Source: Escherichia phage mEp234. From it: 40,804 nt of DNA. The DNA is taken from the sequence record PV340539; one strand, written 5' to 3'. Positions 2,483 to 38,943 of the stretch are shown here, in pieces. The notes below the pieces were generated by a model. The model worked only from the letters and a program-made list of their open reading frames with translations, made no database searches and was not told the DNA's origin. The translations under genes and the position numbers were made by a program. Within the stretch, counting starts at the first letter, position 1. The number at the start of each line of letters is the position of its first letter.

Positions 2483-2505
2483 CGACAGACCAGAAGCGGG
2501 AAGCC

Positions 2506-8390: not shown

Positions 8391-8494
8391 GATTTTATCC
8401 CTGTCTACCCATGCTTCCTGGGCACCAGCGGCTCGTTACTCGGCATCACCCTTAATCCGCCGCCCCATGTGTTTGTTGTGATCCGTTGCTGGCC

Positions 8495-13496: not shown

Positions 13497-13665
13497 CCCA
13501 TCCCAATCCCTTCAATACCAGAAAGAAAGCGTCGAGCGGGCATTAACGTGCGCTAACTGCGGTCAGAAGTTGCATGTGCTGGAAGTTCACGTGTGTGAGC
13601 ACTGCTGCGCAGAACTGATGAGCGATCCGAATAGCTCAATGTACGAGGAAGAAGACGATGGCTAA
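13489..13665 (+). CDS. ninF: NinF, lambda type
   Basis: 58 aa '[58 protein letters not shown]'; below ORF-track cutoff. Confidence 0.8.
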
Positions 13666-14269: not shown

Positions 14270-14472
14270 CGTTCTCAGTAAAAACCATTCCAGACATGCT
14301 CGTTGAAGCATACGGAAACCAGACAGAAGTAGCACGCAGACTGAAATGTAGTCGCGGTACGGTCAGAAAATACGTTGATGATAAAGACGGGAAAATGCAC
14401 GCCATCGTCAACGACGTTCTCATGGTTCATCGCGGATGGAGTGAAAGAGATGCGCTATTACGAAAAAATTGA
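14266..14472 (+). CDS. ninH: NinH, lambda type
   Basis: 68 aa '[39 protein letters not shown]...'. Confidence 0.85.
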
Positions 14473-15115
14473 TGGCAGCAAATACCGAAATATTTGGGTA
14501 GTTGGCGATCTGCACGGATGCTACACGAACCTGATGAAAAAACTGGAGACGATAGGATTCGACACCAAAAAAGACCTGCTTATCTCGGTTGGCGATTTGG
14601 TCGATCGCGGTACAGAGAACGTCGAATGCCTGGAATTAATCACATTCCCCTGGTTCAGAGCTGTACGTGGAAACCATGAGCAAATGATGATTGATGGCTT
14701 ATCAGAGCGCGGAAACGTCAATCACTGGATGCTTAATGGCGGTGGCTGGTTCTTTAATCTCGATTACGACAAAGAAATTCTGGCTAAAGCTCTTGCCCAT
14801 AAAGCAGATGAACTTCCGTTAATCATCGAACTGGTGAGCAAAGATAAAAAATATGTCATCTGCCACGCCGATTATCCTTGTGACGAATACGAGTTTGGAA
14901 AGCCAGTTGATCATCAGCAGGTAATCTGGAACCGCGAACGAATCAGCAACTCACAAAACGGGATCGTGAAAGAAATCAAAGGCGCGGACACGTTCATCTT
15001 TGGTCATACGCCAGCAGTGAAACCACTCAAGTTTGCCAACCAAATGTATATCGATACCGGCGCAGTGTTCTGCGGAAACCTAACATTGATTCAGGTACAG
15101 GGAGAAGGCGCATGA
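14450..15115 (+). CDS. ninI: Ser/Thr protein phosphatase (lambda NinI / PPase)
   Basis: 221 aa from '[24 protein letters not shown]...GDLVDRG...GNHE' metallophosphatase motifs. Confidence 0.93.
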
Positions 15116-15735
15116 GACTCGAAAGCGTAGCTAAATTTCATTCGCCAAAAAGCCCGATGATGAGCGACTCACCACGGGCCACGGCTTCTGACTCTCTTTC
15201 CGGTACTGATGTGATGGCTGCTATGGGGATGGCGCAATCACAAGCCGGATTCGGTATGGCTGCATTCTTCGGTAAGCACGAACTCAGCCAGAACGACAAA
15301 CAAAAGGCTATCAACTATCTGATGCAATTTGCACACAAGGTATCGGGGAAATACCGTGGTGTGGCAAAGCTTGAAGGAAATACTAAGGCAAAGGTACTGC
15401 AAGTGCTCGCAACATTCGCTTATGCGGATTATTGCCGTAGTGCCGCGACGCCGGGGGCAAGATGCAGAGATTGCCATGGTACAGGCCGCGCGGTTGATAT
15501 AGCAAAAACAGAGCAGTGGGGGAGAGTTGTTGAGAAAGAGTGCGGAAGATGCAAAGGTGTCGGCTATTCAAGGATGCCAGCAAGCGCCGCATATCGCGCT
15601 GTAACGATGCTAATCCCAAACCTTACTCAACCCACCTGGTCACGCACTGTTAAGCCGCTGTATGACGCTCTGGTGGTGCAATGCCACAAGGAAGAGTCAA
15701 TCGCAGACAATATCTTGAATGCGGTCACACGTTAG
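15112..15735 (+). CDS. Q: Q late-gene antiterminator, lambda type
   Basis: 207 aa '[29 protein letters not shown]...[12 protein letters not shown]...CGRCKGVGY' as in lambda Q. Confidence 0.93.
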
Positions 15736-15777: not shown

Positions 15778-15806
15778 TTGACTTTTTGAATAAAGTTGGG
15801 TAAATT
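15778..15806 (+). promoter_or_regulatory. pR' late promoter (-35 TTGACT, -10 TAAATT) with overlapping qut region
   Basis: 'ttgactttttgaataaagttgggtaaatttgacatcaacgatgg' closely resembles lambda pR'. Confidence 0.8.
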
Positions 15807-15843
15807 TGACATCAACGATGGATAAATTCACTCGTTAAATAAA

Positions 15844-15874
15844 GCCCTGAGTTAATATCTCGGGGTTTTTTGCG
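15844..15874 (+). terminator. tR' intrinsic terminator very close to pR' (short 6S-like transcript)
   Basis: Hairpin 'gccctgag-ttaatat-ctcgggg' (one G.U) + TTTTTTG, ~40-60 nt after the predicted start. Confidence 0.6.
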
Positions 15875-21712: not shown

Positions 21713-22986
21713 TGGAAGAACCTAAATACACGATTGACCTGCGAACCAATAACGGCTGGTGGGCAAGGCTGCAGTCCTGGTTTGTCGGCGGGCGTTTAGT
21801 CACCCCAAATCAGGGCTCACAGACGGGGCCTGTTTCGGCCCACGGACACCTGGGCGATTCATCCATTAACGATGAACGGATACTGCAAATTTCGACTGTG
21901 TGGCGCTGCGTGAGCCTGATTTCAACGCTCACGGCATGCTTACCGCTTGATGTCTTCGAAACAGACCAGAATGACAACCGTAAAAAAGTGGATTTGAGCA
22001 ATCCACTGGCGCGACTGCTGCGCTACTCACCGAATCAGTACATGACCGCCCAAGAATTCAGGGAGGCCATGACGATGCAGCTCTGTTTCTACGGTAACGC
22101 ATATGCACTTGTGGACCGCAACAGCGCAGGTGACGTGATCAGCCTTCTCCCGCTTCAGTCTGCCAATATGGATGTGAAGCTCGTCGGAAAAAAAGTGGTT
22201 TATCGCTATCAACGCGACAGCGAATACGCCGACTTTTCGCAGAAAGAGATTTTTCACCTTAAAGGCTTCGGATTCACCGGGCTTGTAGGCCTGTCACCCA
22301 TTGCTTTTGCCTGTAAATCGGCAGGTGTGGCAGTTGCGATGGAGGACCAGCAGCGAGATTTCTTTGCCAACGGCGCCAAGTCTCCGCAAATCCTCTCAAC
22401 TGGCGAAAAAGTGCTAACTGAACAGCAGCGCTCCCAGGTCGAAGAGAACTTCAAAGAGATCGCCGGCGGCCCGGTAAAAAAACGCCTCTGGATTCTGGAA
22501 GCGGGTTTTTCTACATCGGCAATTGGCGTAACTCCGCAGGATGCCGAAATGATGGCGTCCCGAAAATTTCAGGTAAGTGAACTGGCGCGATTCTTTGGCG
22601 TACCGCCTCACCTTGTCGGCGACGTCGAGAAATCAACGAGCTGGGGATCGGGCATCGAGCAGCAGAATCTCGGCTTCCTGCAGTACACCCTGCAGCCCTA
22701 TATCTCCAGGTGGGAAAACAGCATTCAGCGGTGGCTTATTCCTGCTAAGGATGTTGGCCGCATTCATGCTGAGCACAACCTCGACGGCCTGCTGAGGGGC
22801 GATTCGGCATCCCGCGCTGCCTTTATGAAGGCAATGGGAGAGGCAGGGCTACGCACCATCAACGAGATGCGACGAACGGACAACCTCCCGCCATTGCCGG
22901 GTGGCGATGTGGCAATGCGCCAGTCGCAATACGTGCCGATCACCGATTTAGGAACCAACAAAGAGCCCCGTAATAACGGGGCTTAA
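21712..22986 (+). CDS. Portal protein (HK97-type head module)
   Basis: ~424 aa, follows terL with TGATG overlap (track GTG start 21709). Confidence 0.8.
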   Translation: MEEPKYTIDLRTNNGWWARLQSWFVGGRLVTPNQGSQTGPVSAHGHLGDSSINDERILQISTVWRCVSLISTLTACLPLDVFETDQNDNRKKVDLSNPLARLLRYSPNQYMTAQEFREAMTMQLCFYGNAYALVDRNSAGDVISLLPLQSANMDVKLVGKKVVYRYQRDSEYADFSQKEIFHLKGFGFTGLVGLSPIAFACKSAGVAVAMEDQQRDFFANGAKSPQILSTGEKVLTEQQRSQVEENFKEIAGGPVKKRLWILEAGFSTSAIGVTPQDAEMMASRKFQVSELARFFGVPPHLVGDVEKSTSWGSGIEQQNLGFLQYTLQPYISRWENSIQRWLIPAKDVGRIHAEHNLDGLLRGDSASRAAFMKAMGEAGLRTINEMRRTDNLPPLPGGDVAMRQSQYVPITDLGTNKEPRNNGA

Positions 22987-23003
22987 TTTTTATGGGGGCC
23001 GTA

Positions 23004-23681
23004 ATGCCTGAAATCGTAAAAACGCTGTCCTTCGACGAGACAGAAATCAAATTCACCGGTGACGGTAAACAGGGGATTTTTGAAGGCTACGCCTCTGTTT
23101 TTAATAACACCGATTCCGATGGCGACATCATTCTGCCCGGGGCGTTTAAAAACGCGCTGGCGAACCAGACCCGAAAAGTGGCGATGTTTTTTAACCACAG
23201 GACGTGGGAACTGCCGGTTGGCAAATGGGACAGCCTGGCTGAGGACGAAAAAGGCCTGTATGTGCGCGGTCAACTTACCCCAGGACACAGCGGCGCCGCT
23301 GACCTAAAAGCGGCAATGCAGCACGGTACGGTTGAAGGTATGTCGGTTGGCTTTTCCGTTGCGAAAGACGATTACACCATCATTCCAACAGGCCGCATTT
23401 TTAAGAATATCCAGGCTCTGCGCGAAATCAGCGTCTGCACTTTCCCCGCCAACGAACAGGCTGGCATCGCAGCCATGAAAAGTGTCGATGGCATTGAAAC
23501 GATTCGTGATGTGGAGAACTGGCTGAGGGATTCAGTCGGCCTCACCAAATCACAGGCAGTTGGGCTAATTGCCCGGTTTAAGTCAGCGATTCGGAGCGAG
23601 TCCGAGGGCGACGGAAACGAAGCACAAATAAACGCTCTGCTTCAGAGCATCAAATCTTTCCCTTCTAACTTAGGTAAATAA
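23004..23681 (+). CDS. Prohead maturation protease (HK97 family)
   Basis: ~225 aa between portal and major capsid; track start 22992. Confidence 0.8.
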   Translation: MPEIVKTLSFDETEIKFTGDGKQGIFEGYASVFNNTDSDGDIILPGAFKNALANQTRKVAMFFNHRTWELPVGKWDSLAEDEKGLYVRGQLTPGHSGAADLKAAMQHGTVEGMSVGFSVAKDDYTIIPTGRIFKNIQALREISVCTFPANEQAGIAAMKSVDGIETIRDVENWLRDSVGLTKSQAVGLIARFKSAIRSESEGDGNEAQINALLQSIKSFPSNLGK

Positions 23682-23683
23682 TT

Positions 23684-24838
23684 ATGTCTGAACTCGCTCT
23701 CATTCAAAAAGCTATCGAAGAATCCCAGCAGAAAATGACCCAGCTTTTCGATGCGCAGAAAGCAGAAATCGAAAGCACAGGCCAGGTTTCCAAACAGTTG
23801 CAGTCCGACCTGATGAAAGTACAGGAAGAGCTGACCAAATCCGGCGCTCGCCTCTTCGATCTGGAACAGAAACTGGCATCCGGCGCTGAGAATCCTGGTG
23901 AGAAGAAATCCTTCTCTGAACGGGCTGCTGAAGAGCTTATTAAGTCATGGGACGGTAAACAGGGCACCTTTGGCGCTAAAACGTTTAACAAGTCACTAGG
24001 CAGTGACGCTGATTCGGCTGGCTCACTGATCCAGCCTATGCAGATCCCAGGCATCATCATGCCAGGCCTGCGCCGTCTTACCATTCGTGATCTGCTGGCT
24101 CAGGGCCGCACTTCCAGTAACGCTCTGGAATATGTGCGTGAAGAGGTGTTTACCAATAACGCCGACGTGGTGGCAGAGAAAGCACTGAAGCCAGAATCGG
24201 ATATCACCTTCAGCAAACAAACCGCGAACGTGAAGACCATCGCGCACTGGGTGCAGGCATCACGTCAGGTGATGGATGATGCGCCAATGCTTCAGTCCTA
24301 CATTAACAACCGCCTCATGTACGGCCTGGCACTGAAGGAAGAGGGCCAGCTGCTGAACGGCGACGGTACCGGGGATAACCTGGAAGGGCTGAACAAAGTG
24401 GCAACCGCCTATGACACCTCGCTGAATGCCACCGGCGACACCCGCGCTGACATTATCGCTCACGCTATTTATCAGGTGACCGAGTCTGAGTTCAGCGCTT
24501 CCGGTATCGTCCTGAACCCGCGCGACTGGCACAACATCGCGTTGCTGAAAGACAATGAAGGCCGCTATATCTTCGGTGGTCCTCAGGCATTCACCAGTAA
24601 CATCATGTGGGGCTTGCCAGTGGTTCCGACTAAGGCGCAGGCCGCCGGCACCTTTACCGTAGGCGGTTTCGATATGGCCTCACAGGTCTGGGATCGCATG
24701 GATGCCACCGTGGAAGTTAGCCGTGAAGACCGCGATAACTTCGTGAAAAACATGCTGACCATCCTGTGCGAAGAGCGTCTGGCGCTGGCGCATTATCGCC
24801 CGACAGCAATCATCAAGGGCACCTTCTCTGCTGACTAA
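23684..24838 (+). CDS. Major capsid protein (HK97 fold) with N-terminal delta/scaffold-like domain
   Basis: 384 aa, coiled-coil N-terminal ~100 aa then capsid domain. Confidence 0.85.
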   Translation: MSELALIQKAIEESQQKMTQLFDAQKAEIESTGQVSKQLQSDLMKVQEELTKSGARLFDLEQKLASGAENPGEKKSFSERAAEELIKSWDGKQGTFGAKTFNKSLGSDADSAGSLIQPMQIPGIIMPGLRRLTIRDLLAQGRTSSNALEYVREEVFTNNADVVAEKALKPESDITFSKQTANVKTIAHWVQASRQVMDDAPMLQSYINNRLMYGLALKEEGQLLNGDGTGDNLEGLNKVATAYDTSLNATGDTRADIIAHAIYQVTESEFSASGIVLNPRDWHNIALLKDNEGRYIFGGPQAFTSNIMWGLPVVPTKAQAAGTFTVGGFDMASQVWDRMDATVEVSREDRDNFVKNMLTILCEERLALAHYRPTAIIKGTFSAD

Positions 24839-24847
24839 TGATGGAGG

Positions 24848-24869
24848 GGGCGGGGAAACCCGCCCTTTT
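24848..24869 (+). terminator. Intrinsic terminator after major capsid gene
   Basis: Hairpin 'gggcggg-gaaa-cccgccc' + TTTT. Confidence 0.6.
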
Positions 24870-24874
24870 AACGT

Positions 24875-25201
24875 ATGGCGATAGATGTTCTGGATGTAAT
24901 TCCCCTCAGTCTGTTTAAGCAGCAGATTGAGTTTGAGGAAGACGACAGGGACGAGCTGATCACGCTGTACGCCCAGGCCGCTTTTGACTACTGCATGCGC
25001 TGGTGCGATGAACCAGCATGGAAGGTTGCGGCTGATATTCCTGCCGCCGTTAAGGGCGCCGTTCTGCTTGTCTTTGCTGACATGTTTGAACACCGGACGG
25101 CACAAAGTGAAGTGCAGCTTTATGAGAATGCAGCCGCCGAACGCATGATGTTCATTCATCGCAACTGGCGCGGTAAAGCCGAATCAGAGGAGGGCTCCTG
25201 A
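24875..25201 (+). CDS. Head-tail connector (gp6-like)
   Basis: 108 aa, position and size. Confidence 0.65.
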   Translation: MAIDVLDVIPLSLFKQQIEFEEDDRDELITLYAQAAFDYCMRWCDEPAWKVAADIPAAVKGAVLLVFADMFEHRTAQSEVQLYENAAAERMMFIHRNWRGKAESEEGS

Positions 25202-25539
25202 TGGAACCGGGACGATTCAGGCACCGGGTAAAAATTCTCACCTTCACAACCTCGCGTGATCCATCTGGCCAGCCGGTTGAATCGTGGAGGGGTGGCAGGC
25301 CGATTTCTGCCGAGGTGAAGGGGATCAGCGGCAGAGAGCAGATGTCAGGCGGCGTGGAGACGGCGCAGGCAACTATTCGCGTCTGGATGCGCTTCAGGGC
25401 TGACCTGAACGCCTCTTCTCGTCTGGAAGTGCTAAGCGGGCCGTATAAAGGCCAGGTGCTAAATATCATCGGTCCTCCGGTAGCAAATTCGACCGGCACT
25501 CGCCTGGAAATTCTTTGCAAAACGGGAGCTGAAAAATGA
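25201..25539 (+). CDS. Head closure/head-tail adaptor protein
   Basis: 112 aa, position and size. Confidence 0.65.
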   Translation: MEPGRFRHRVKILTFTTSRDPSGQPVESWRGGRPISAEVKGISGREQMSGGVETAQATIRVWMRFRADLNASSRLEVLSGPYKGQVLNIIGPPVANSTGTRLEILCKTGAEK

Positions 25540-25985
25540 TAGAAACGAGCCTCGATTTTTCCGGCCTGAATGACATAGCAAAGGATCTGGAGGCGCTTAG
25601 CCGCGCTGAAAACAATAAGGTTCTTCGTGATGCCACGCGCGCCGGCGCGGAAGTGCTTAAGGAAGAAGTGATCGCACGTGCACCGGTACGCACCGGAAAA
25701 CTGAAAAAAAACGTGGTGGTGGTTACCCAAAAAAGCCGCCGCCGCGGGGAGATTTCTTCCGGCGTCCATATTCGTGGCGTTAACCCGCGCACCGGCAACA
25801 GCGATAACACGATGAAGGCGAATAACCCGAGAAACGCCTTTTACTGGCGATTCGTTGAGCTGGGCACCGCGAACATGCCTGCACATCCGTTTGTGCGACC
25901 CGCTTACGATACGCGCGAGGAAGAGGCCGCCAGCGTCGCCATTGCCAGGATGAATCATGCTATTGATGAGGTATTGAGCAAGTGA
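25536..25985 (+). CDS. HK97 gp10-like neck/tail-completion protein
   Basis: 149 aa, position and size. Confidence 0.6.
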   Translation: MIETSLDFSGLNDIAKDLEALSRAENNKVLRDATRAGAEVLKEEVIARAPVRTGKLKKNVVVVTQKSRRRGEISSGVHIRGVNPRTGNSDNTMKANNPRNAFYWRFVELGTANMPAHPFVRPAYDTREEEAASVAIARMNHAIDEVLSK

Positions 25986-26329
25986 ATGAAGATAATATCT
26001 ACGCCTTGCTTTCTCCCCTGGCAGAGGGGCGGGTATACCCCTATGTTGCGCCATTAGGTAGTGACGGGAAACCGTCTGTCTCTCCACCCTGGATTATCTT
26101 TTCCATCGTCGATGATGTTTCCGCTGACGTACTGTGTGGCCAGGCAGAGAGCAGGGTTTCCGTTCAGGTCGATGTGTATGCCACAACGATCACTGAATCA
26201 CGATCCCTGAGAGATTTGGCGCTCGCTTCGCTTAAGCAGTTAAACCCTACAGAGGTGGTAAAAATCCCCGGGTACGAGCCAGATTATCGGCTCTACCGTG
26301 CCACCCTGGATTTTAAAGTTACCCCCTGA
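25982..26329 (+). CDS. Tail terminator protein (gpU-like)
   Basis: 115 aa immediately upstream of major tail gene. Confidence 0.6.
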   Translation: MNEDNIYALLSPLAEGRVYPYVAPLGSDGKPSVSPPWIIFSIVDDVSADVLCGQAESRVSVQVDVYATTITESRSLRDLALASLKQLNPTEVVKIPGYEPDYRLYRATLDFKVTP

Positions 26330-26348
26330 CGATTAATTCACCCAACGA

Positions 26349-26375
26349 ACCCGCCTGATGGCGGGTTTTCTTTTT
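26349..26375 (+). terminator. Intrinsic terminator between head-completion and tail genes
   Basis: Hairpin 'acccgcc-tgat-ggcgggt' + TTTCTTTTT. Confidence 0.6.
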
Positions 26376-26388
26376 CCAGGAGACAGCT

Positions 26389-27093
26389 ATGTCTGCACTT
26401 TATGAAAAATCGCAGCTGACGAAGATCCTTATTTCCTCCCTGCCAGCCACCAAAGAAACGATGGATTCCGCCACCTTTCTCGATCTGAGTTGCACCATCA
26501 AAGAAATTCAGTTCACTGGTGGCCAGAAGCAGGATATCGACGTAACAACACTTTGCTCTACCGAGCAGGAGAACATCAACGGCCTGCCTTCTCCGTCAGA
26601 AATCTCTCTGTCCGGCAACTTCTACAATAATCCAGCGCAGGACGCCTTGCGTGATGCGTATGACAACGACACCACTTACGGCTTCCAGATCATCTTCCCG
26701 TCAGGTAATGGTTTTAAGTTCCTGGCCGAAGTTCGCCAGCATACCTGGTCATCTGGTACCAATGGTGTTGTGGCAGCTACATTCTCACTGCGCCTTAAAG
26801 GCAAGCCTGTCCCGATTGACTCTGTACTTAAACTGACCACTGATCTTCCTTCCTCACTGTCTGTAGCGGTGGGGGCTGCGATCAGCATGGCTGTAGTAGC
26901 TGCCGGTGGTAAGCCTCCGTATGCCTACACCTGGAAGAAGGCAGGTAGCACCGTCAGCGGGCAGACATCCGATACCTTTAATAAAGCCACCGCAGTTTCA
27001 GGTGATGCAGGTGATTACACCTGTGTGGTTACGGATTCTTCTTCTCCGGTCAAAACGGTTACCTCAGCTGCCTGCACCCTTACTATCAGTTAA
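26389..27093 (+). CDS. Major tail (tube) protein with C-terminal Ig-like domain
   Basis: 234 aa; C-terminal '...GGKPPYAYTWKKAGSTVSGQTSDTFNKATAVSGDAGDYTCVVTDSSSP' Ig-like. Confidence 0.8.
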   Translation: MSALYEKSQLTKILISSLPATKETMDSATFLDLSCTIKEIQFTGGQKQDIDVTTLCSTEQENINGLPSPSEISLSGNFYNNPAQDALRDAYDNDTTYGFQIIFPSGNGFKFLAEVRQHTWSSGTNGVVAATFSLRLKGKPVPIDSVLKLTTDLPSSLSVAVGAAISMAVVAAGGKPPYAYTWKKAGSTVSGQTSDTFNKATAVSGDAGDYTCVVTDSSSPVKTVTSAACTLTIS

Positions 27094-27127
27094 TGGAGAT
27101 GCCGGGTTGTCCCGGCATGGATAAGCG

Positions 27128-27514
27128 ATGTCGCAAACTTTAAAACAATTAGCCATGGCGAAAATGGCTGGCTTTCGCCATAAGACGGTCGTTGTCCCTG
27201 AGTGGGAAGGTGTCAAAGTGGTTCTCCGTGAGCCGTCAGGTGAAGCCTGGCTGCGCTGGCAGGAGGTGGTGAAAGGGGGGGCCGACGATGAAAATGTGTC
27301 GGTATCGGAAAAGGCGCACCGTAATCTTTGCGCTGACGTGGTGCTCTTCATTGACGTTCTGTGTGACACCGATAAGCAACCGGTATTCAGCGTAGACGAA
27401 GAAGAGCAGGTGCGTGAAATTTACGGGCCAGTGCACTCACGTCTGCTCAAACAGGCGCTTGACCTGATCAACAATGCGGACGAAGCGCGGGAAAAGTCTC
27501 AACCCCCGGCGTAA
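27128..27514 (+). CDS. Tail assembly chaperone (gpG-like)
   Basis: 128 aa, upstream of tape measure; -1 frame ORF follows. Confidence 0.75.
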   Translation: MSQTLKQLAMAKMAGFRHKTVVVPEWEGVKVVLREPSGEAWLRWQEVVKGGADDENVSVSEKAHRNLCADVVLFIDVLCDTDKQPVFSVDEEEQVREIYGPVHSRLLKQALDLINNADEAREKSQPPA

Positions 27515-27522
27515 AGTTTCTG

Positions 27523-27801
27523 ATGTCGCTTGCGCTCCGGATGGGGCGCACGCTCTCAGAGCTTCGGCAGAATATGACGGCAAGCGAGCTTCTGATGTGG
27601 ATTGAGTACGACAGGCAAAGCCCGGTTGGCGATATTCGCGGTGATATCCATGCAGCGCAGATTGTCTCTGCCATCTACGGCTCGCAGGGGGCAAAAGTAC
27701 CGCTGGACGATGCGATCCTGCGCTGGGGTGGTGATGAGCAATCAGAACCGAAGGACCCGTTTGCAGGGCTTGAGGCGGCACTTACAGCTGCGACACAATA
27801 A
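27523..27801 (+). CDS. Tail assembly chaperone frameshift extension (gpT-like; expressed as G-T fusion by -1 frameshift)
   Basis: -1 frame relative to G-like ORF, open from 27463; slippery-like 'GGGAAAAG' at 27489-27496. Confidence 0.65.
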   Translation: MSLALRMGRTLSELRQNMTASELLMWIEYDRQSPVGDIRGDIHAAQIVSAIYGSQGAKVPLDDAILRWGGDEQSEPKDPFAGLEAALTAATQ

Positions 27802-27858
27802 TTGCTTCACATGCCTTCAATGTAGCGATACGCTCTTTCCTTAAGTAAAGGAGGCGTT

Positions 27859-28047
27859 ATGGAACCACTGGTAGTAGTGTTTGGAATATTCGGCTGGCTG
27901 ATAAATCTAATTGTGATTTTTTATTTATTACGGTTTAGCACAAGGGCAAATGAACAAGTTGAAGCCCTTAAAGAGATAAATAAAAAGCAAGATGCGCAAA
28001 TAGATTTATTAATACAAGTCGCTCACCAAAGAAAAGACAGTTTATAA
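27859..28047 (+). CDS. Small single-pass membrane protein (62 aa), moron between G/GT and tape measure; paralog of 33212..33436
   Basis: RBS AAGGAGG; N-terminal TM helix; 'FYLLRFSTRANEQVEALKEINKK' aligns with 'FFINRASVRANRQVELLESIDQK'. Confidence 0.7.
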   Translation: MEPLVVVFGIFGWLINLIVIFYLLRFSTRANEQVEALKEINKKQDAQIDLLIQVAHQRKDSL

Positions 28048-28054
28048 CTCACGA

Positions 28055-28077
28055 CCCGCTATCAAGCGGGTTTTTTT
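28055..28077 (+). terminator. Hairpin + U7 element after the first membrane-protein moron
   Basis: 'cccgct-atca-agcggg' + TTTTTTT, immediately before ATGGG. Confidence 0.6.
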
Positions 28078-31000
28078 ATGGGTGAAAATATGGCTACGTT
28101 GCGCGAACTGATCATCAAAATATCTGCAAACTCTCAGTCATTCCAGTCTGAAATTTCTCGTGCTTCAAGAATGGGGAATGACTATTACCGGGTAATGCAG
28201 ACTGGAGGACGCCAATCGGCCGCAGCTTCGCGTGAAACTCAGCGTGCCTTGGCTGAGGTAACTAGTCAAATAAACACCGCGAAGGCCTCAGCACTGGGAA
28301 TGGCTGGTGCATTTGCTGGAGCATTTGCGACTGGTCATCTTATATCGCTGGCCGATGAATGGAGCTCTATTAATGCCAGGCTAAAGCAGGCTTCCCAGTC
28401 GTCAGATGATTTCACGGAGTCCCAGCGGGCGCTGATGGATATTAGCCAGCGAACCGGAACCGCCTTCTCTGATAATGCGAGTCTTTTTGCGCGTTCAGCC
28501 GCTTCTATGCGTGAATATGGCTACAGTTCAGAAGAGGTTCTGAAGGTAACCGAGGCTATATCAACAGGGCTTAAGCTGTCAGGCGCAAGCGCGTCTGAAG
28601 CGAGTTCGGTAATCACGCAGTTCAGCCAGGCTCTGGCGCAGGGTGTTCTTCGAGGCGAGGAATTTAACTCCGTCAACGAAAACGGTGATCGAGTTATCCG
28701 TGCTCTTGCCGCAGGGATGGGTGTAGCTCGTAAAGATCTGAAGGCAATGGCCGATCAGGGGATGCTAACCGCAGATAAAGTTGTCCCGGCCCTGATAAGT
28801 CAACTTGGCACTATGCGTGGTGAATTTGAGGCAATGCCGCAGACCGTTTCTGCTGCCACGACGAAAGTCGAAAATGCTTTCATGGCATGGGTAGGTGGCG
28901 CTAATGAAGCCACTGGTGCGACAAGTACTCTTGTTGCCGTATTGAATACGGTTTCTGACAATATAGACACTGTGGCTACGGCTGCCGGAGCTTTGGCTGC
29001 GATAGGTGGAGCTCGCTATCTTGGAGGGATGTTTGGCGATCTTGGGAACCAGACGGCGCAATTAATAGATGCCAGAAAGAACGAAATTGCGCTCGCAGCT
29101 GCAAGGGCTGAATCTGCTACCCAATCACAACGCAAGGCCGCCGCCGATGCTATTGCTGCTGAGCGAGCTTACCAGCTTGCTCAGTCAGAACTTGTGCTGG
29201 CAAAGAATACTAATGCTGAGGCTACTGCCACTCAAAATGCCATATCCAAGCGCCGGGCAATGATTACAGCAAATGCGGCACTGGTACAGTCAAACAGAGC
29301 CGTTGCAGCCTCTCAGCAGGCACTTAACTCTGCAACATCAGTGCTGGGGCTTGTAAAAACTGGCGCTACGGGTCTTTTGTCGTTAGTTGGTGGTTTGCCA
29401 GGAATTTTAATGTTGGGTGCTGGGGCGTGGTACACGATGTATCAACGCCAAGAACAAGCCAGGGAATCTGCAATCAAATATGCGGACACAATAGAGCAGG
29501 TACGAGATAATCTGAAATCAATGTCTCAGACGCAGATATCCGCCAACCTTGGACAGGCGAATATTTCACTGGATGCTCAGAATAGTGCGATTGAACAGCA
29601 GAAGCAGAAAGTTGCTGAATTATCCAATCAACTTTATAACGCAAAATTAGCAGCCAATTCTGCTTCAGAGGGGACATGGCTGTATAACGATGCGGTTGAG
29701 AAAGCCGCAGACTTTGCTTCAGAACTTGCGGTTGAAGAAGGCCGACTTGAGCAAATGCTCAATAAAAGAAAGCAAACACAACAGTTAATAAACGACATAA
29801 CTGATCAGGCTATAAATAAAACAGTAGAAATGGCTGGCGCCGTAAGTTCTCTTACAGAGATGTATGACCGGCTGAACAAGGTTTCCAGACAGTCTACAGC
29901 AGTGTCCCCACCAAAATATGCAGGACCTGTACTTCCTGCGCTTGATAATAAGCAACAACAAGCTATTGAGAAAGCACAGCGACAGCTTGAGTTATCTGGC
30001 CTTCAGGGTTTGGATAAGGCTCGAAAGCAGGCAGAATTCGATGCATCTGATCTGAACCTTCCAGCTGGTTGGCGTGAGAAATATGTCAGCATGGAAGTTG
30101 AGTCTGCCAGGCAATTACAAGCAATTCGTAACTCAAGCCGCCATAAGGGTGGAAAATCCGAGGCGGAAAAAACAGCTGATACCTATGACAAGCTGATCAA
30201 GCAGCAAAAAGAGCAGATCGCTCTGCAAGGGCAGAATACCGAGCTGGCAAAGGTTAAATATCAGGTAAGCCAGGGTGAGCTTTCTACGCTAAGTCAGGCC
30301 CAGAAAGCCGAAGTTATGCGTAATGCTGCTCTCATCGATCAGGTTAAATTGCGTGAGCAACTGCGAAATTACGAAGCCAACCTTGCTGACAGTAACGCCA
30401 GCGCCCGCGCAGCCAATGAAGCGCAACTGCTGGGATACGGGCAGGGAACCAGGTTCCGTGAAAGACTTCAGGAGCAGTTCAATCTGCGTAAGGAGTTTGA
30501 GCAGAAGAATACCGATCTTCTCCGCCAGCGTCAGGCTGGTGAAATCGACGAGACGTTCTATCAGCAGGGGCTGGCACTTAATAAGCGCTACCTCGAAGAG
30601 CGCCTGCGCGACCAGGAGGGATATTACGCAGCTTCTGATGCGCAGCGTGACGACTGGATGACGGGACTGTCTGAGGGTTATGCGAACTGGGTGGACGAAG
30701 CGACAGATTACTCCTCCATGGCCGCTGACGGCATGAAGCAGGCCATGGGTGGCGCGGTCACCACGATCACCGACATGCTCAATGGCAACGTTGACAGCTG
30801 GAAGGACTGGGGCGTGAGCGTACTGAAGATCATCCAGAACGTTCTGGTGAACATGGCTGTTGCTAACGGCGTCAGTTCAATTGGTTCTCTCTTCAGCTTT
30901 GGCGCATCTTCCGCCGCTGCCGCCAGTAGCGGTACTGCAATTCAGAACGCTGGCGCGAACTTCACCTTTAACGCGAAGGGTAATGTTTACGACTCTCCGT

Positions 31001-31356
31001 CCCTGAGCGCATACAGCAATGGCGTGTTTCAGACCCCTCAGCTTTTTGCTTTTGCCAAAGGAGCGGGTGTGTTTGCAGAGGCTGGACCTGAAGCCATTAT
31101 GCCGCTTACCCGTGCTGCTGATGGTTCGCTTGGCGTTCGGGCTGTTGGCACTGGTGGTGGTCAGGCTGTATCTTCGGCTCCACAGGTTTACATCACCATC
31201 GATGGCAACGGAAATACTTCCACGCAGACTTCACCCGGCCTTGAGCAATTTGGTGCTGATGTCGGTAAATATATTGATCAGCGATATAAGCAGAACATCA
31301 TGCGAGATATTCGCCCTGGCGGTGACATCTGGAACGCAATGAAAGGAACCCGATAA
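28078..31356 (+). CDS. Tail tape measure protein
   Basis: 1092 aa, alpha-helical/Ala-Gln-rich, between chaperone and M/L/K/I/J. Confidence 0.9.
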   Translation: MGENMATLRELIIKISANSQSFQSEISRASRMGNDYYRVMQTGGRQSAAASRETQRALAEVTSQINTAKASALGMAGAFAGAFATGHLISLADEWSSINARLKQASQSSDDFTESQRALMDISQRTGTAFSDNASLFARSAASMREYGYSSEEVLKVTEAISTGLKLSGASASEASSVITQFSQALAQGVLRGEEFNSVNENGDRVIRALAAGMGVARKDLKAMADQGMLTADKVVPALISQLGTMRGEFEAMPQTVSAATTKVENAFMAWVGGANEATGATSTLVAVLNTVSDNIDTVATAAGALAAIGGARYLGGMFGDLGNQTAQLIDARKNEIALAAARAESATQSQRKAAADAIAAERAYQLAQSELVLAKNTNAEATATQNAISKRRAMITANAALVQSNRAVAASQQALNSATSVLGLVKTGATGLLSLVGGLPGILMLGAGAWYTMYQRQEQARESAIKYADTIEQVRDNLKSMSQTQISANLGQANISLDAQNSAIEQQKQKVAELSNQLYNAKLAANSASEGTWLYNDAVEKAADFASELAVEEGRLEQMLNKRKQTQQLINDITDQAINKTVEMAGAVSSLTEMYDRLNKVSRQSTAVSPPKYAGPVLPALDNKQQQAIEKAQRQLELSGLQGLDKARKQAEFDASDLNLPAGWREKYVSMEVESARQLQAIRNSSRHKGGKSEAEKTADTYDKLIKQQKEQIALQGQNTELAKVKYQVSQGELSTLSQAQKAEVMRNAALIDQVKLREQLRNYEANLADSNASARAANEAQLLGYGQGTRFRERLQEQFNLRKEFEQKNTDLLRQRQAGEIDETFYQQGLALNKRYLEERLRDQEGYYAASDAQRDDWMTGLSEGYANWVDEATDYSSMAADGMKQAMGGAVTTITDMLNGNVDSWKDWGVSVLKIIQNVLVNMAVANGVSSIGSLFSFGASSAAAASSGTAIQNAGANFTFNAKGNVYDSPSLSAYSNGVFQTPQLFAFAKGAGVFAEAGPEAIMPLTRAADGSLGVRAVGTGGGQAVSSAPQVYITIDGNGNTSTQTSPGLEQFGADVGKYIDQRYKQNIMRDIRPGGDIWNAMKGTR

Positions 31357-31358
31357 AA

Positions 31359-31697
31359 ATGGCTATCGAAACTTTCACCTGGTGCCCACGACTTAACGCT
31401 GAGGCAGATATAAATTTCCGCGTCAGGAAAGCACAGTTTGGTGATGGATATGAGCAGGTTTCAGGGGATGGATTGAACACCAGAACCCAGCAATGGACGC
31501 TCAACTTCACTGGCAACGAAACCTACATTTCTGCCATTAAATCTTTTCTCGACAGGCATGAAGGAACGAAAGCCTTTCAATGGAAGCCACCGCTCGAACC
31601 TTTGGGTTTGTATCGTTGCGAAACGTATAAACCCACCGGGCTTGGCGCGGGGAAATTCAACCTTGAAGCAACATTCATCCAGGCATTTAAACCATGA
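31359..31697 (+). CDS. M: Minor tail protein M-like
   Basis: 112 aa; '...FGDGYEQ...' as in lambda gpM; position after tape measure. Confidence 0.75.
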   Translation: MAIETFTWCPRLNAEADINFRVRKAQFGDGYEQVSGDGLNTRTQQWTLNFTGNETYISAIKSFLDRHEGTKAFQWKPPLEPLGLYRCETYKPTGLGAGKFNLEATFIQAFKP

Positions 31698-32452
31698 GCT
31701 TAAACGCAGATTATCAGAAGCTGGAATCCGGAAACGATGTTCGTCTGATTGAGGTGGACGGTTCTTCCTTTGGGCTAACGGACGTTCTCCGCTTTCACAA
31801 TTACAGCATTCCCCACACAGAAGCGGAAATCATCGCCGCTGGTGGGGATGAGTCCAAGCTTCCGGCGAAACCAATCTGGTGGCAGGGAAATGAATACGCC
31901 GCCTGGCCGTATCAGCTGGAAGGTCTGGAGAAATCAACCAGTGGGAGCAATGCAACGCCATCACTGACGGTTGCGAACATCGAAAGCTCCATTTCTGCTC
32001 TGTGTCTTGCGTATGACGATCTGCTGCAGGCTAAAGTCACTATTCACGACACAAAAGAGAAATATCTCGATGCCAGGAATTTCGCAGACGGTAACCCTTC
32101 TGCAGACCAGACTCAGGAAAAGCTGCAGGTCTGGTATATCGACGGGAAAACGGGCGAGCTTGCCGGTGAAACCGTTGAATTTGTTCTGTCCAGCCCGATG
32201 GACCTGCAGGGGCAAATGATCCCGACGCGACAGCTTCATTCCCTGTGTACCTGGTGCATCCGGAATAAATATCGCACCGGCGACGGCTGCGACTATGCCG
32301 GCACCCGCTATTTCGACAAAAACAACAACCCGGTAAGCGATCCGTCGCTGGATGAATGCAACGGCACGCTGACGGCCTGCAAACTCCGATTCGGCGAAAA
32401 TAACGAACTCTCGTTTGGTGGCTTCCCGGGCACGTCTTTGATCAGGAGTTGA
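31694..32452 (+). CDS. L: Minor tail protein L-like
   Basis: 252 aa, Cys-rich C-terminus 'CTWCIRNKYRTGDGCDYAG...CNGTLTACKLRFGENNELSFGGFPG'. Confidence 0.85.
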   Translation: MSLNADYQKLESGNDVRLIEVDGSSFGLTDVLRFHNYSIPHTEAEIIAAGGDESKLPAKPIWWQGNEYAAWPYQLEGLEKSTSGSNATPSLTVANIESSISALCLAYDDLLQAKVTIHDTKEKYLDARNFADGNPSADQTQEKLQVWYIDGKTGELAGETVEFVLSSPMDLQGQMIPTRQLHSLCTWCIRNKYRTGDGCDYAGTRYFDKNNNPVSDPSLDECNGTLTACKLRFGENNELSFGGFPGTSLIRS

Positions 32453-32453
32453 T

Positions 32454-33164
32454 ATGCGTCAGAAAACCGTCGATGAGATTATGGCGCATGCTGCAGCTGA
32501 ATATCCTCGCGAGTGTTGCGGCGTGGTGGCGCAGAAAAGCCGTGTTGAACGTTATTTCCCGTGCCGGAATCTTGCCGCGGCGCCGGAGGACAATTTTGTC
32601 CTTTGCCCGGAAGATTACGCAGCTGCTGAGGACTGGGGTACGGTGATCGCCATCGTTCACAGTCACCCTGACGCCACAACGCAACCGAGCGAACTGGATA
32701 AAGCGCAATGCGACGCAACGCTTTTACCCTGGCACATCGTGAGCTGGCCTGAGGGGGATTTGCGCACCATCCAGCCGCGTGGGGAACTGCCGCTGCTGGA
32801 GCGTCCGTTTGTGCTTGGCCACTTCGACTGCTGGGGTCTGGTAATGAGCTATTTCCGGCAAACGCATGGTATCGAGCTCCACGATTACCGGGTTGATTAT
32901 CCCTGGTGGGAAAACGACTATCCGGACAACTTCTATCAGGATTGCTGGTATGAGTGCGGATTCCGTGAATTCGACGGACCACCGAAACCCGGCGATATGG
33001 TGATCATGCAGGTCCAGGCTGATAAGTGGAACCACGCTGGAATTCTGCTGGAGGGCAATATGCTGCTGCACCACCTGTACGGACATCTGAGCCAGCGCGT
33101 GCCGTATGGTGGCTACTGGCAGGAAAGGACGATGAAGATTCTTAGACATCAGAATTTTATTTAA
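32454..33164 (+). CDS. K: Tail assembly protein K-like (JAB/MPN + NlpC/P60 domains)
   Basis: 236 aa; JAMM motif 'HSHPD', Cys/His NlpC-like region. Confidence 0.85.
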   Translation: MRQKTVDEIMAHAAAEYPRECCGVVAQKSRVERYFPCRNLAAAPEDNFVLCPEDYAAAEDWGTVIAIVHSHPDATTQPSELDKAQCDATLLPWHIVSWPEGDLRTIQPRGELPLLERPFVLGHFDCWGLVMSYFRQTHGIELHDYRVDYPWWENDYPDNFYQDCWYECGFREFDGPPKPGDMVIMQVQADKWNHAGILLEGNMLLHHLYGHLSQRVPYGGYWQERTMKILRHQNFI

Positions 33165-33211
33165 CAAACTGTCACTGATACTATCGTGTAGTACACAGCA
33201 AGGAGAACGAT

Positions 33212-33436
33212 ATGTATACAGTTGGGTTTGGTTGGATCTTCGTCGGTATTTTTATTGGGTTAATTCTCTGGTTTTTCATCAACCGCGCCAGCGTCAGAGC
33301 GAACAGGCAGGTTGAATTACTTGAGTCTATCGACCAGAAATTATCAAAAATAGTAGATCCAAACTTCGAGGCAAATAACAAAGACCAGTCGAAAGAAAAC
33401 TACCTTGAAGAAGCAAGGAAAAAAGCTGGGCTTTGA
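33212..33436 (+). CDS. Small single-pass membrane protein (74 aa), moron between K and I; paralog of 27859..28047
   Basis: RBS AAGGAGA; N-terminal TM helix; shared RAN(E/R)QVE motif. Confidence 0.7.
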   Translation: MYTVGFGWIFVGIFIGLILWFFINRASVRANRQVELLESIDQKLSKIVDPNFEANNKDQSKENYLEEARKKAGL

Positions 33437-33452
33437 GAGCGTAAATTAACAA

Positions 33453-33474
33453 ACCACCTACGGGTGGTTTTTTT
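33453..33474 (+). terminator. Hairpin + U7 element after the second membrane-protein moron
   Basis: 'accacc-tacg-ggtggt' + TTTTTTT before ATGGGGG. Confidence 0.6.
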
Positions 33475-33485
33475 ATGGGGGCAGC

Positions 33486-34094
33486 ATGCAAGAGGTAATG
33501 ACAAGAATTGAGCTAAGTGGCGTGCTAGCTAAGACATATGGAAGGGTTCATCACCGTCTGGTTCGCACTACTGCTGAAGCCATTAATGCACTCGCGAAAA
33601 CCATCAATGGATTCGAGAAATTCTTAAACACAAGCAAAGCCCGAGGGCTGACGTATGCCGTTTATAGAGATAAAAAGAATATTGGCGTTGATGATCTCGG
33701 CTTTCCCGTCACCGGCGAAGTGATCCGGATTGTCCCTGTAGTAATAGGGAGTAAAAAGGCTGGTCTTTTGCAGACGATCTTGGGGGCCGTGCTTATTACT
33801 GCTGCTGTGTTGACTGGAGCCGGCGGTATTGGCGCTGCTTTCGCTGCTGGTGGATTGACGGGGTTTGCTGCTGCCACTGGTGCCTCGTTGGTCCTCGGTG
33901 GGGTTATTCAGCTGCTTTCACCGCAGCCATCAGGCATAGCCAGTAAACAAAGCGCAGATAACCGTGCATCGTATGCGTTTGGCGGGGTAACCAACACTGC
34001 AGCGCAAGGCTACCCGGTGCCTCTGCTTTATGGTAAGCGTCGAATCGGCGGAGCGATTATTTCTGCCGGAATTTATGTCGAAGATCAGCAGTAG
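33486..34094 (+). CDS. I: Tail assembly protein I-like
   Basis: 202 aa with Gly/Ala-rich hydrophobic C-terminal half typical of lambda gpI. Confidence 0.8.
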   Translation: MQEVMTRIELSGVLAKTYGRVHHRLVRTTAEAINALAKTINGFEKFLNTSKARGLTYAVYRDKKNIGVDDLGFPVTGEVIRIVPVVIGSKKAGLLQTILGAVLITAAVLTGAGGIGAAFAAGGLTGFAAATGASLVLGGVIQLLSPQPSGIASKQSADNRASYAFGGVTNTAAQGYPVPLLYGKRRIGGAIISAGIYVEDQQ

Positions 34095-34113
34095 ATAACT
34101 AACCTTTTTTCTG

Positions 34114-34135
34114 GCCACCTTCGGGTGGCTTTTTT
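34114..34135 (+). terminator. Hairpin + U6 element upstream of J-like gene (third copy of the element)
   Basis: 'gccacc-ttcg-ggtggc' + TTTTTT before ATGGGCG. Confidence 0.5.
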
Positions 34136-34146
34136 ATGGGCGCAAT

Positions 34147-37100
34147 ATGGCTACAGATAAAGTGTTAAAAGGCCGCAAGGGCGGCAGCTCAAGTTCCCGA
34201 ACCCCTACCGAACAGCCTGATGATCTGCAATCTGTAGCGAAGGCAAAGATCCTCGTTGCGCTTGGGGAAGGGGAGTTTGCTGGACAGCTCACCGGGAAGG
34301 ATATCTACCTGGACGGAACAGCGCTGGAGAATGCTGACGGCTCCCAAAACTTCAGCGGGGTAACGTGGGAGTTTCGCGCGGGAACGCAGGCGCAAAAATA
34401 TATTCAGGGTATTCCCGGTACCGAAAACGAGATCAGCGTAGGAACTGAGGTATCAAGTGCCACAGCCTGGACGCGCACGTTTACCAATACGCAGCTTTCA
34501 GCAGTTCGCCTGCGTCTTAAATGGCCCTCGCTTTTCAAACAGGAAGACGACGGCGATCTGGTGGGTTACTCGGTCAATTATGCGATTGACCTGCAGACGG
34601 ACGGCGGCACATGGCAGACGGTACTCAATACCAGCGTGACCGGCAAAACGACGTCTGGTTATGAGCGCAGCCACCGTATCGATTTACCGCAGGCTGGCAG
34701 CACATGGACAATACGTCTGCGTAAGATTACCTCTGACGCCAACAGCGCGAAGATCGGCGACACGATGATGCTGCAGAGCTTCACCGAGGTGATTGATGCC
34801 AAACTGCGCTACCCGAACACCGCGCTGCTCTACGTCGAATTCGACTCAAGCCAGTTCAACGGCTCTATTCCTCAAATTTCATGCGAACCGCGCGGCCGCG
34901 TTATCCGCGTTCCAGATACCTACGACCCTGAAACCCGCACTTATAGCGGTACATGGACCGGTGCGTTTAAGTGGGCATGGACGGATAACCCTGCGTGGAT
35001 TTTTTACGACCTGGTTGTTTCTGACCGGTTTGGCCTCGGGCACCGTTTGACCGCTGCGAATATTGATAAATGGACTCTTTATCAGGTTGCTCAGTATTGT
35101 GATCAGATGGTACCAGACGGCAAAGGGGGCAACGGTACAGAACCACGCTATACCTGCAACGTGTACATTCAGGACCGGAACGACGCCTACACAGTCCTGC
35201 GTGATTTTGCCGCTATCTTCCGTGGCATGACCTACTGGGGCGGGGATCAGATTGTGGCCCTGGCTGACATGCCGCGCGATGTTGATTACAGCTATACGCG
35301 CGCTAACGTTGTTGGCGGTCGCTTCACCTATTCGAGCAGCACCACGAAAAGCCGCTACACCACAGCGCTGGTTTCATGGTCAGATCCGGGTAACGCTTAT
35401 GCCGACGCAATGGAGCCGGTATTTGAGCAGGCGCTGGTGGCGCGATACGGCTTCAATCAGCTGGAAATGACAGCCATCGGCTGCACCAGGCAGTCAGAGG
35501 CGAACCGAAAGGGGCGCTGGGGTATTCTCACCAACAACAAGGATCGCGTTGTTTCGTTTGATGTCGGGCTGGACGGAAACATTCCGCAGCCGGGCTACAT
35601 CATCGCCGTGGCAGACGAGCTGCTTTCCGGAAAGGTTATGGGCGGCCGCATCAGCGCCGTTAACGGTCGCGTTATCAAACTTGACCGCGTAGCTGATGCA
35701 GCACCAGGTGATCGCCTTATTCTCAACCTGCCTTCCGGAGCGTCGCAGAGCAGGACCATTCAGGCCGTGAACGGGGAATCAGTCACAGTCACCACGGCAT
35801 ACAGTGAGACGCCACAGGCCGAAGCTGTTTGGGTTGTTGAATCTGACGAGCTTTACGCGCAGCAGTATCGTGTTGTCAGCGTCTCCGACAACGGTGATGG
35901 CACTTTCTCAATCACCGGCGCATGGCACGACCCGGATAAATATGCCCGCATCGATACCGGAGCCATCATTGACCAGCGGCCGGTGAGCGTGATCCCGCCT
36001 GGTAACCAGTCGCCGCCTGCGAACATCGTGATCAGCTCGTTTTCCGTGGTGCAGCAAAATATCAGCGTCGAAACGATGCGCGTGAGCTGGGACCAGGCGC
36101 AGAACGCTATCGCCTATGAAGCGCAATGGCGCCGCAACGACGGGAACTGGGTTAACGTGCCGCGCACCTCCACCACGTCATTCGACGTCCCGGGGATTTA
36201 TGCCGGGCGCTACCTGGTGCGGGTGCGCGCAATCAATGCCGCAGAAATTTCATCCGGATGGGGCTATTCAGAAGAGAAAACGCTGACGGGTAAAGTGGGC
36301 AATCCACCGAAGCCGGTTGGCTTCATCGCTTCTGAAAATGTGGTTTTCGGCATCGAGCTGAACTGGGGATTCCCGGCGAATACCGACGACACGCTGAAGA
36401 CGGAAATTCAGTACAGCCTGACCGGAACCGAGGACGATGCGATGCTGCTGGCCGATGTGCCTTATCCGCAGCGCAAATATCAGCAGATGGGCCTCAAGGC
36501 TGGGCAGATTTTCTGGTACCGCGCTCAGCTGGTGGACCGCAGCGGCAACGAATCAGGGTACACAGAATGGGTGCGAGGACAGGCCAGCATCGATGTTTCC
36601 GACATCACAGATGTGATCCTGGAGGACATGAAAGGCTCCGATACGTTCAAAGACCTGATCGAGAACGCTGTGGACAGCAATGAAAAAATTGCTGGCATGG
36701 CTGACGAAATCAAAAACCATGCCGACGAACTCGAGCAGCAGGCGAAAGACATCCAGGAAAACGCTGACGGGCTGGCCCAGGCCGAAGTGAAGATCGACGA
36801 GATTTCTGTGTCGATGGATGGCATGACGGGAGGCGTGAAGAACTCGGCAATCGCGATTATCCAGAATGGGCTGGCGCAGGTTGTCAGTCGTCGTTCCCAG
36901 ACCGCGACAAACGCAGGGAACAGCGCCAGCATTGACCGTATCGACACGACCATAGCCGACACCAGCTCGGCGGTTGCTCGCGCGCTGGTGACGCTGGATG
37001 CTTCAGCTGGTGGGAATATCTCCAACTCTACCGATCTCACTGAAACTCTGGCCGATTTCACGCAGGCATCGGCGACAAAAATTAACACCCTGAATGTTAA

Positions 37101-38885: not shown

Positions 38886-38905
38886 CTCATGATTTTCAAT
38901 GCAAA

Positions 38906-38927
38906 CCTCGCCTCGGCGGGGTTTTTT
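38906..38927 (+). terminator. Putative intrinsic terminator after lipoprotein gene
   Basis: GC hairpin 'cctcgcctcggcgggg' + TTTTTT. Confidence 0.45.
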
Positions 38928-38943
38928 ATTGCCTGGAGAAAAT

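Follow-up and report, generated by a model that had tools for sequence, protein, structure and literature searches.

Predicted intrinsic terminators adjoining the ribosome-binding sites of four late genes of Escherichia phage mEp234

Four hairpin and leader junctions in the late operon

The late operon of Escherichia phage mEp234 was analysed in sequence record PV340539, whose whole stretch of 40,804 nucleotides (nt) is here called the window. At four gene junctions, termed S1 to S4, a hairpin rich in guanine-cytosine (GC) pairs is followed on the + strand by a run of T residues, the motif ATGGGNG and a start codon. The junctions precede the genes for the protease (S1), the tape-measure protein H (S2), I (S3) and the host-specificity protein J (S4). 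The window is in prophage order, starting at attP; its positions 20000-40804 are 100% identical to the GenBank record of mEp234, a phage of the HK97 group, and in the late region a window coordinate equals the record coordinate plus 19705. A first-pass annotation had described the four sites as copies of one conserved element with stems of 5-6 base pairs (bp). The sites are real, each with a GC hairpin, a T-run, the 12-mer TTTTTATGGGNG and a gene start 11-12 nt after the motif ATG; the stems had to be corrected to 7-9 bp.

The S1 terminator spans 22963-22991. Its hairpin (GAGCCCCGT-AATA-ACGGGGCTT, 22963-22984) is encoded in the last 7 codons of the portal gene, whose stop codon TAA lies at 22984-22986, and is followed by five T at 22987-22991; a linker AT and the Shine-Dalgarno (SD) sequence GGGGG (22994-22998) then lead, over a 5-nt spacer, to the protease ATG at 23004 (leader 22992-23006). 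At S2 (28053-28077), the hairpin GACCCGCT-ATCA-AGCGGGTT (28053-28072) stands 6 nt past the stop codon of a gp15-like moron, that is, an extra gene of deviant GC content, and runs into seven T at 28071-28077; the leader (28078-28092) consists of a linker AT and the SD GGGTGA (28080-28085) before the H ATG at 28090. The S3 terminator (33451-33474) follows a gp20-like moron and is formed by the hairpin AAACCACC-TACG-GGTGGTTT (33451-33470, UACG loop) with seven T at 33468-33474; the leader (33475-33488) again carries a linker AT and an SD GGGGG (33477-33481), and gene I starts at 33486. Finally, S4 (34113-34135) begins 20 nt past the stop codon of I with the hairpin GGCCACC-TTCG-GGTGGCT (34113-34130, UUCG loop) and six T at 34130-34135, and its near-invariant leader ATGGGCGCAAT (34136-34149), which has a weak SD, ends in the J ATG at 34147.

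All four stems are perfect, have 7-9 bp with at least 4-6 GC pairs and close loops of 4 nt, two of which are UNCG loops, and the predicted energies range from -11.6 to -15.7 kcal/mol. The T-runs are 5, 7, 7 and 6 nt long at S1, S2, S3 and S4, with an uninterrupted U-tract 3' of the stem at S2-S4. On an approximate score d of the d'Aubenton-Carafa type, calculated with modern energy parameters, S2 (31.6), S3 (18.5) and S4 (36.3) are clear terminators and S1 is borderline (about 1). The hairpins of S3 and S4 are nearly alike (CCACC-TNCG-GGTGG), and the stems of S1 and S2 are unrelated to these or to each other. We take S3 and S4 to be two paralogous copies of a single hairpin and explain the likeness of S1 and S2 to them by shared constraints.

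The hairpins are already known, annotated terminators of a well-studied phage family. Putative rho-independent terminators in the late operons of HK97 and HK022 were reportedly described by Juhala et al. in 2000. We took the terminator features of HK97-group late operons from GenBank records AF069529 and JQ182732. In mEp234, the 'rho-independent terminator' features at 3260-3286 (window 22965-22991), 8349-8372, 13746-13771 and 14409-14430 are S1-S4, and those of HK97 at 3309-3335, 8398-8422, 13799-13824 and 15107-15129 coincide with them; the late operon of both records carries eight such features, four of which are S1-S4. The annotated late-operon terminators of HK97 and HK022 are thus the same objects, except that this annotation ends at the T-tract whereas the element of the first-pass annotation ran on into the SD and the start codon. 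The anatomy it had proposed, a terminator hairpin with a G-rich SD, is borne out by the coincidence with the GenBank terminators and by SD pairing at S1-S3. An Rfam search of the window returned nothing at gathering thresholds except a frameshift element of an insertion sequence (IS) away from S1-S4, and an E-value scan gave only terminator-like matches, all sub-threshold.

Exact matches to TTTTTATGGGNG occur four times in the window, at 22987, 28073, 33470 and 34131, all on the + strand, and allowing one mismatch retrieves the identical four sites and none extra. In each leader, the annotated start is the second ATG (23004 for the protease, 28090 for H, 33486 for I and 34147 for J). It stands 12, 12, 11 and 11 nt, respectively, from the motif ATG, which shares the reading frame of the gene at S1 and S2, where it lies four codons upstream, but not at S3 and S4. 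The shortness and low complexity of the elements would favour a chance resemblance among four unrelated intergenic sequences, but dinucleotide shuffles contained a mean of 0.01 matches and none gave 4, and every copy is on the coding strand with a hairpin before it and a start codon after it. A motif search across mEp234 and related phages, as the first-pass annotation had suggested, returned 413 strict matches in 1.44 Mb of related loci, and every one lies at one of the four orthologous junctions. This restriction also refutes coincidence, which is hardly tenable at all, and since all 413 matches fall at the same four places, we are dealing with four conserved junctions and not with a dispersed repeat.

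The shared motif and the hairpins in related phages

For comparison we used 240 related loci around the protease gene, the tape-measure N-terminus and gene I, together with the records of HK97, HK022, lambda, Serratia phage OS31 and Klebsiella phage KPP5665-2; hairpins were parsed by script, and the counts below are of unique sequences. The G-run of the motif would pair with the 3' end of 16S rRNA with -8.4, -8.3 and -8.4 kcal/mol at S1, S2 and S3, and the spacers from SD to start are 4-7 nt. In the relatives, the T-tract is followed by a variable linker (AT, ATT, ATTT, CGCCT, CGTCC or GTTTCT) and then by an SD (GGGGG, GGTGA or GGAG), with GGAG or GGTGA standing at the corresponding position in orthologous leaders. 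Thus the leaders before H read ATGGGTGA, ATTGGGTGA, ATTAGGTGA, ATTTGGTGA, CGCCTGGAGA, CGCCTGGAG or GTTTCTGGAG, those before I read ATGGAGAA, ATTGGAG, ATTTGGAGG or ATTTAGGAG, and the protease leader of OS31 (TTTTTTAGGGGGC) has AGGGGGC after its T-run and lacks the ATG. Strict ATGGGNG is found in only 4 of the 46 sequences at the K/I junction and 10 of the 35 at T/H. The motif ATG is missing at the S1 orthologue in OS31, in 24/35 T/H leaders and in 24/46 K/I leaders; lost in relatives at the sites orthologous to S1-S3, it is kept only in the I/J leader.

A T-run (5 or more T, the last of them at most 22 nt from the start codon) is present by the start in 18/19 portal/protease, 34/35 T/H, 41/46 K/I and 40/41 I/J sequences. 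Because the T-run is near-universal while linker, SD and ATG vary among relatives, the shared 12-mer is best regarded, on this comparative evidence, as a composite of the end of the T-tract, a two-base A/T linker and a G-rich SD, and not as an independent element. The idea of a single conserved, repeated element did not survive this comparison: only S3 and S4 share a consensus beyond what a terminator and an SD demand.

A different possibility is that the motif ATG is itself functional, either as the true start at S1 and S2 or, at S3 and S4, as a decoy or upstream open reading frame (ORF) start that throttles translation of I and J. In favour of this, the S1 and S2 ATGs share the frame of the gene, and the KPP5665-2 record starts the protease at the motif ATG (position 3263), four codons upstream; the 3' arm GGGUGG lies 7 nt 5' of the motif AUG and could form a duplex of -9.5 kcal/mol at S3 and -7.3 kcal/mol at S4. 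Moreover, 39 of the 41 unique I/J leaders keep an ATG that lies 11 nt upstream of the J start and out of its frame, and lambda has a similar one. However, this would-be SD is shut in the hairpin stem, the small ORFs opened at S3 and S4 vary in length and sequence among phages, and the ATG is absent at the S1 site of OS31 and from the majority of T/H and K/I leaders, as counted above. We consider a functional motif ATG exceedingly unlikely, and for the protease the comparative data favour the downstream ATG, as annotated in HK97 and mEp234, over the start annotated in KPP5665-2. Insulation of the ribosome-binding site (RBS) by the hairpins was also considered and rejected: the mean unpaired probability from -18 to +12 is 0.41, 0.42, 0.27 and 0.60 at the four starts, which is unremarkable beside the range of 0.28-0.64 at the other late genes.

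The hairpins are far better preserved as structures than as sequences. A perfect hairpin occurs in 37/37 sequences at T/H, with 20 distinct stems, in 44/51 at K/I, with 17, and in 50/51 at I/J, with 16. This pattern suggests that the hairpin structure is under selection while the stem sequence is free. At S1, the stem in OS31 (11960-12001) carries two compensatory double changes, each composed of a synonymous change and an amino-acid replacement in the portal tail (Ala to Val and Asn to Ser). Given these compensatory changes, the RNA or DNA structure appears to have been selected over the C-terminal residues of the portal protein.

In many genomes, gene I stands between two near-identical repeats of about 27 bp that comprise hairpin, T-run and ATGG (window 33451-33481 and 34113-34142). 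Both flanks of gene I in OS31 (23838-24552) share another, mutually identical hairpin (AACCCGCTCCGGCGGGTT), which may point to homogenisation of such copies inside one genome.

Morons and their slots

S2, S3 and S4 stand at the classic moron slots T/H, K/I and I/J; S1 is not at a moron slot. In mEp234, the T/H slot holds a YebO-like gene of 62 amino acids (27859-28047, + strand; PF13974, E=1.2e-9) that is similar to HK97 gp15 and is ended by S2. The K/I slot holds a YebO-like gene of 74 amino acids (33212-33436, + strand; PF13974, E=1.8e-12) that is homologous to HK022 gene 20, annotated as 'moron gene product' in the HK022 record, and is ended by S3. Their GC contents of 0.33 and 0.40, respectively, compare with 0.52 for the late region. 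An extra gene of deviant GC content is thus found upstream of S2 and S3 only, and the slots are empty in many relatives. Moron transcription units made up of promoter, gene and terminator, HK97 gene 15 for example, were reportedly described by Juhala and colleagues in 2000 and by Cumby et al. in 2012. The HK97 prophage expresses gp15, and a moron has a promoter and a terminator of its own (PMC3594210). HK97 gene 15 and HK022 gene 20, the homologues of the two mEp234 genes, are archetypal morons.

In their separate slots, the two morons of mEp234 belong as YebO-like paralogues to the superinfection-exclusion family of HK97 gp15. The T/H slot of other phages has YebO-like genes that end in ...EEYLEEARRKVWEK instead. 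The HK97 homologue of gene 20 is broken by a TAG codon (CAGGTAGG in HK97 as against CAGGCAGG here; HK97 13469-13791, window 33164-33486), so that the gp20-type moron is a pseudogene in HK97 and intact in mEp234 and HK022.

Had the terminators arrived with the inserted genes, they should be missing where the genes are missing, but the same hairpins are found in relatives that lack a moron at K/I, I/J and T/H. The I/J slot, occupied by genes 22 and 23 in HK97 and HK022, is empty in mEp234, and in most genomes the I/J hairpin follows I directly. Morons occupy this slot in 10 loci (HK97, HK022 and eight others), always upstream of the same hairpin. At the T/H slot, we counted at least 6 cargo types, two lipoproteins among them, a minimum that leaves out 20 T/H loci. 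Compared with the known moron units, S2 and S3 do follow homologues of gp15 and gene 20, but the hairpins persist in empty slots. The suggestion that the junctions mark scars of moron insertion therefore holds in part: YebO-like morons of low GC content do precede S2 and S3, and the S4 slot holds morons elsewhere, but the hairpins also stand in empty slots and S1 marks no slot. To judge from these comparisons, the hairpins seem to reside in the slot, or in the leader of the downstream gene, and not to be cargo.

Residence in a slot also raises the possibility that the terminator-SD cassettes serve as landing pads or homology linkers for moron exchange, their likeness being due to recombination and not to function. 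At T/H, one hairpin family with its leader goes with at least 6 unrelated upstream cargos and also with none, I/J morons always lie upstream of one and the same hairpin, homology between loci of different cargo starts at the 5' base of the hairpin, and in many genomes near-identical hairpin repeats stand on either side of gene I. On the other hand, the pairwise-identity correlation across I/J (0.55) is only moderately under the values within genes (0.72-0.78), the correlation drops most sharply within gene I (0.34) and not at the I/J junction, and the stems differ among S1, S2 and the S3/S4 pair. Such a role would in any case be compatible with terminator function and not exclusive of it; as a rival explanation we hold it to be very improbable.

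The late operon and a proposed role for the terminators

The architecture of the late region bears on what the hairpins may do. The gene for the late antiterminator Q (15112-15735, + strand; PF03589, E=9.5e-57) is followed by a candidate pR' promoter (15778-15806) and a tR'-like hairpin (15841-15869), which is the predicted layout of a Q-dependent lambdoid late operon and resembles pR'-tR' of lambda. From this candidate pR' to the tail-fibre gene, the + strand has a series of at least ten terminator-like hairpins; the late operon consists of translationally coupled gene blocks split by hairpins, and every gap of more than 30 nt, the 5' sides of morons excepted, holds one. Besides S1-S4, the late operon has a hairpin, annotated as a terminator, after the major capsid gene (24846-24867, + strand), with a weak T tail and no ATGGGNG; a terminator before the major tail gene (26347-26375, + strand), whose T-tract TTTTCTTTTT precedes a CCAGGAG SD; a hairpin, likewise annotated as a terminator, after the major tail gene (27099-27118, + strand), which has no T-run and a d of -17; and a terminator after cor and before stf (38903-38929, + strand; TTTTTTATTGCCTGGAG), with the same architecture and another linker. 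Outside the late region, the window carries an IS3-family insertion with an IS1222-type frameshift element (2219-3339; Rfam match 2449-2566, 156.6 bits), about 1.2 kb that are not in the mEp234 GenBank record.

The lambda late operon offers a parallel, and like that of mEp234 it has a Q antiterminator. At the lambda I/J junction, AAACCGCC-TGCG-GGCGGTTT is followed by TTGTCATTTATGGAGCGTGAGGAATG before J, in the same layout as in mEp234, except that the T-tract is weaker and a GAGGA SD is added; at lom/stf, AGCCCGCCGGAACCGGTGGGC and six T are followed by GTGGGGTGAATATG before stf. Unlike mEp234, lambda has no hairpins at T/H or K/I.

We regard it as likely that S1-S4 are four separate intrinsic terminators, each abutting the SD of the next gene, which in the lysogen would halt polymerase that Q has not modified and in lytic growth would be read through. 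Lambdoid Q proteins act as antiterminators. In the lysogen, unmodified polymerase, from transcripts of the gp15-like and gp20-like morons or from stray transcription, would stop at the hairpins, and this stop would keep H, I and J silent. After induction, Q-modified polymerase from pR' would read through the hairpins, and each downstream gene would then be translated from its own SD. Since strong + strand terminators stand in series between the promoter and every structural gene, late expression would have to be terminator-resistant.

The same series of hairpins could instead cause partial termination during lytic growth and, by way of the resulting mRNA gradient, fix the proportions of head and tail proteins, a role in stoichiometry that the first-pass annotation had put forward. 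Eight annotated hairpins in series, their position at the bounds of translationally coupled blocks and in every non-moron gap of more than 30 nt, and the fact that read-through by Q need not be 100% would suit such a gradient. However, Q is encoded, and S1 lies upstream of the protease and the major capsid gene, the products of which are needed far more than the 12-copy portal. Partial termination at S1 would thus act in the wrong direction, because capsid is needed in larger amounts than portal. S2-S4 are strong and serial, so that appreciable termination would starve J and stf. Ratios of lambda late proteins are said, from work by Sampson et al. in 1988, to be set mainly at translation initiation. 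Control of stoichiometry by partial termination is, in our estimate, quite improbable.

Alternatively, the hairpins may be barriers to 3' exonucleases, with the U-tract as a possible RNase E site, which would give the segments of the 20-kb late mRNA differing half-lives. Intercistronic stabilising hairpins are known from the repetitive extragenic palindromic (REP) sequences in malE-malF and from the puf operon. Like these, the hairpins of mEp234 are stable and stand between cistrons of a long polycistronic mRNA, and they are conserved in empty slots of an operon built of blocks; those after the major capsid and major tail genes have poor or no T-tails and, for that reason, are unlikely to be terminators. 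REP and puf may serve as a model for the T-less hairpins of mEp234, and the hairpins at 24846-24867 and 27099-27118, which follow the two most abundant structural genes, may be mRNA stabilisers. S1-S4 differ from REP and puf in that they carry U-tracts and have many different stems and no REP-like shared consensus. The U-tracts at S2-S4 are perfect, as is typical of real terminators, and the genes upstream of S1-S4 (portal, two morons and I) are of low abundance and would gain little from stabilisation. A role of S1-S4 as mRNA boundaries is improbable, though it may apply to the conserved hairpins of empty slots.

Several observations weigh against Q-controlled terminators as a full account of the four junctions. 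We infer actual termination, read-through and an insulating role from the sequence, and no data on transcript ends at the late-operon hairpins of HK97-like phages or lambda turned up in the literature searched. At S1, the tail reads AATTTTTA, the portal TAA interrupting the U-tract between stem and T-run, in keeping with the borderline score. A consensus scan found no sigma-70 promoter with at least 9/12 matches upstream of either moron. Hairpins occur without a moron upstream at K/I in most relatives, at T/H in OS31 and the L230 group, at I/J in mEp234 and at S1 everywhere, and since they do so, insulation against moron transcripts cannot explain all of them; the empty T/H slot of HK022, for its part, has no hairpin. 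At S4, the SD is weak, pairing with the 16S 3' end with only -2.4 kcal/mol. Furthermore, across the 22 columns of the I/J leader, T-run to ATG, the majority frequency averages 0.967, as against 0.68-0.73 at flanking third codon positions. As this conservation is reached despite the weak SD, the S4 leader is more conserved than an SD alone requires.

The I/J leader has the form T-run, ATGGGCGC(A/G)AT, ATG (window 34130-34149); codons 2-8 of J and the spacer after the I stop codon are both variable, unlike the leader. A genome-wide scan with the S4 sequence gave 81 matches, 20 of which are J leaders in enterobacterial prophages, and prophages of 20 enterobacterial species have the leader again in front of their J homologues. 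A more ambitious reading would make the terminator-SD cassettes fixtures of T/H, K/I and I/J that are kept with or without a moron and act as safe moron acceptors, and would give the I/J leader (U-tract, AUGGGCGCAAU, AUG, with an out-of-frame AUG whose SD is masked in the hairpin) an added, undescribed control of J translation. We consider this rather unlikely.

Matches to the S4 sequence outside the enterobacteria were judged coincidental, being generic GCCACC/GGTGGC terminators of GC-rich bacteria. About 60 matches to GGTGGC-T6-(N0-2)-ATGGGCGC lie in Burkholderiales, Pseudomonas and other GC-rich bacteria. They often read TTTTTTCATGGGCGC after a AAAGCCACC...GGTGGC hairpin, and one is a long perfect palindrome, GCGCCCAT-A6-GCCACC...GGTGGC-T6-ATGGGCGC. 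CATGGGCGC recurs among these matches, which are probably generic terminators.

Overall, the significance of the junctions is small, as the hairpins have been annotated already and the additional motif resolves into a linker and an RBS; the sole residual oddity is the unusually invariant I/J leader. Two minor points follow. Terminators at the classic slots for morons stay conserved where no moron is present, which would refine the textbook view of a moron that brings its own terminator. Furthermore, the leader of the host-specificity gene J appears to be under stronger constraint than an RBS alone would explain.

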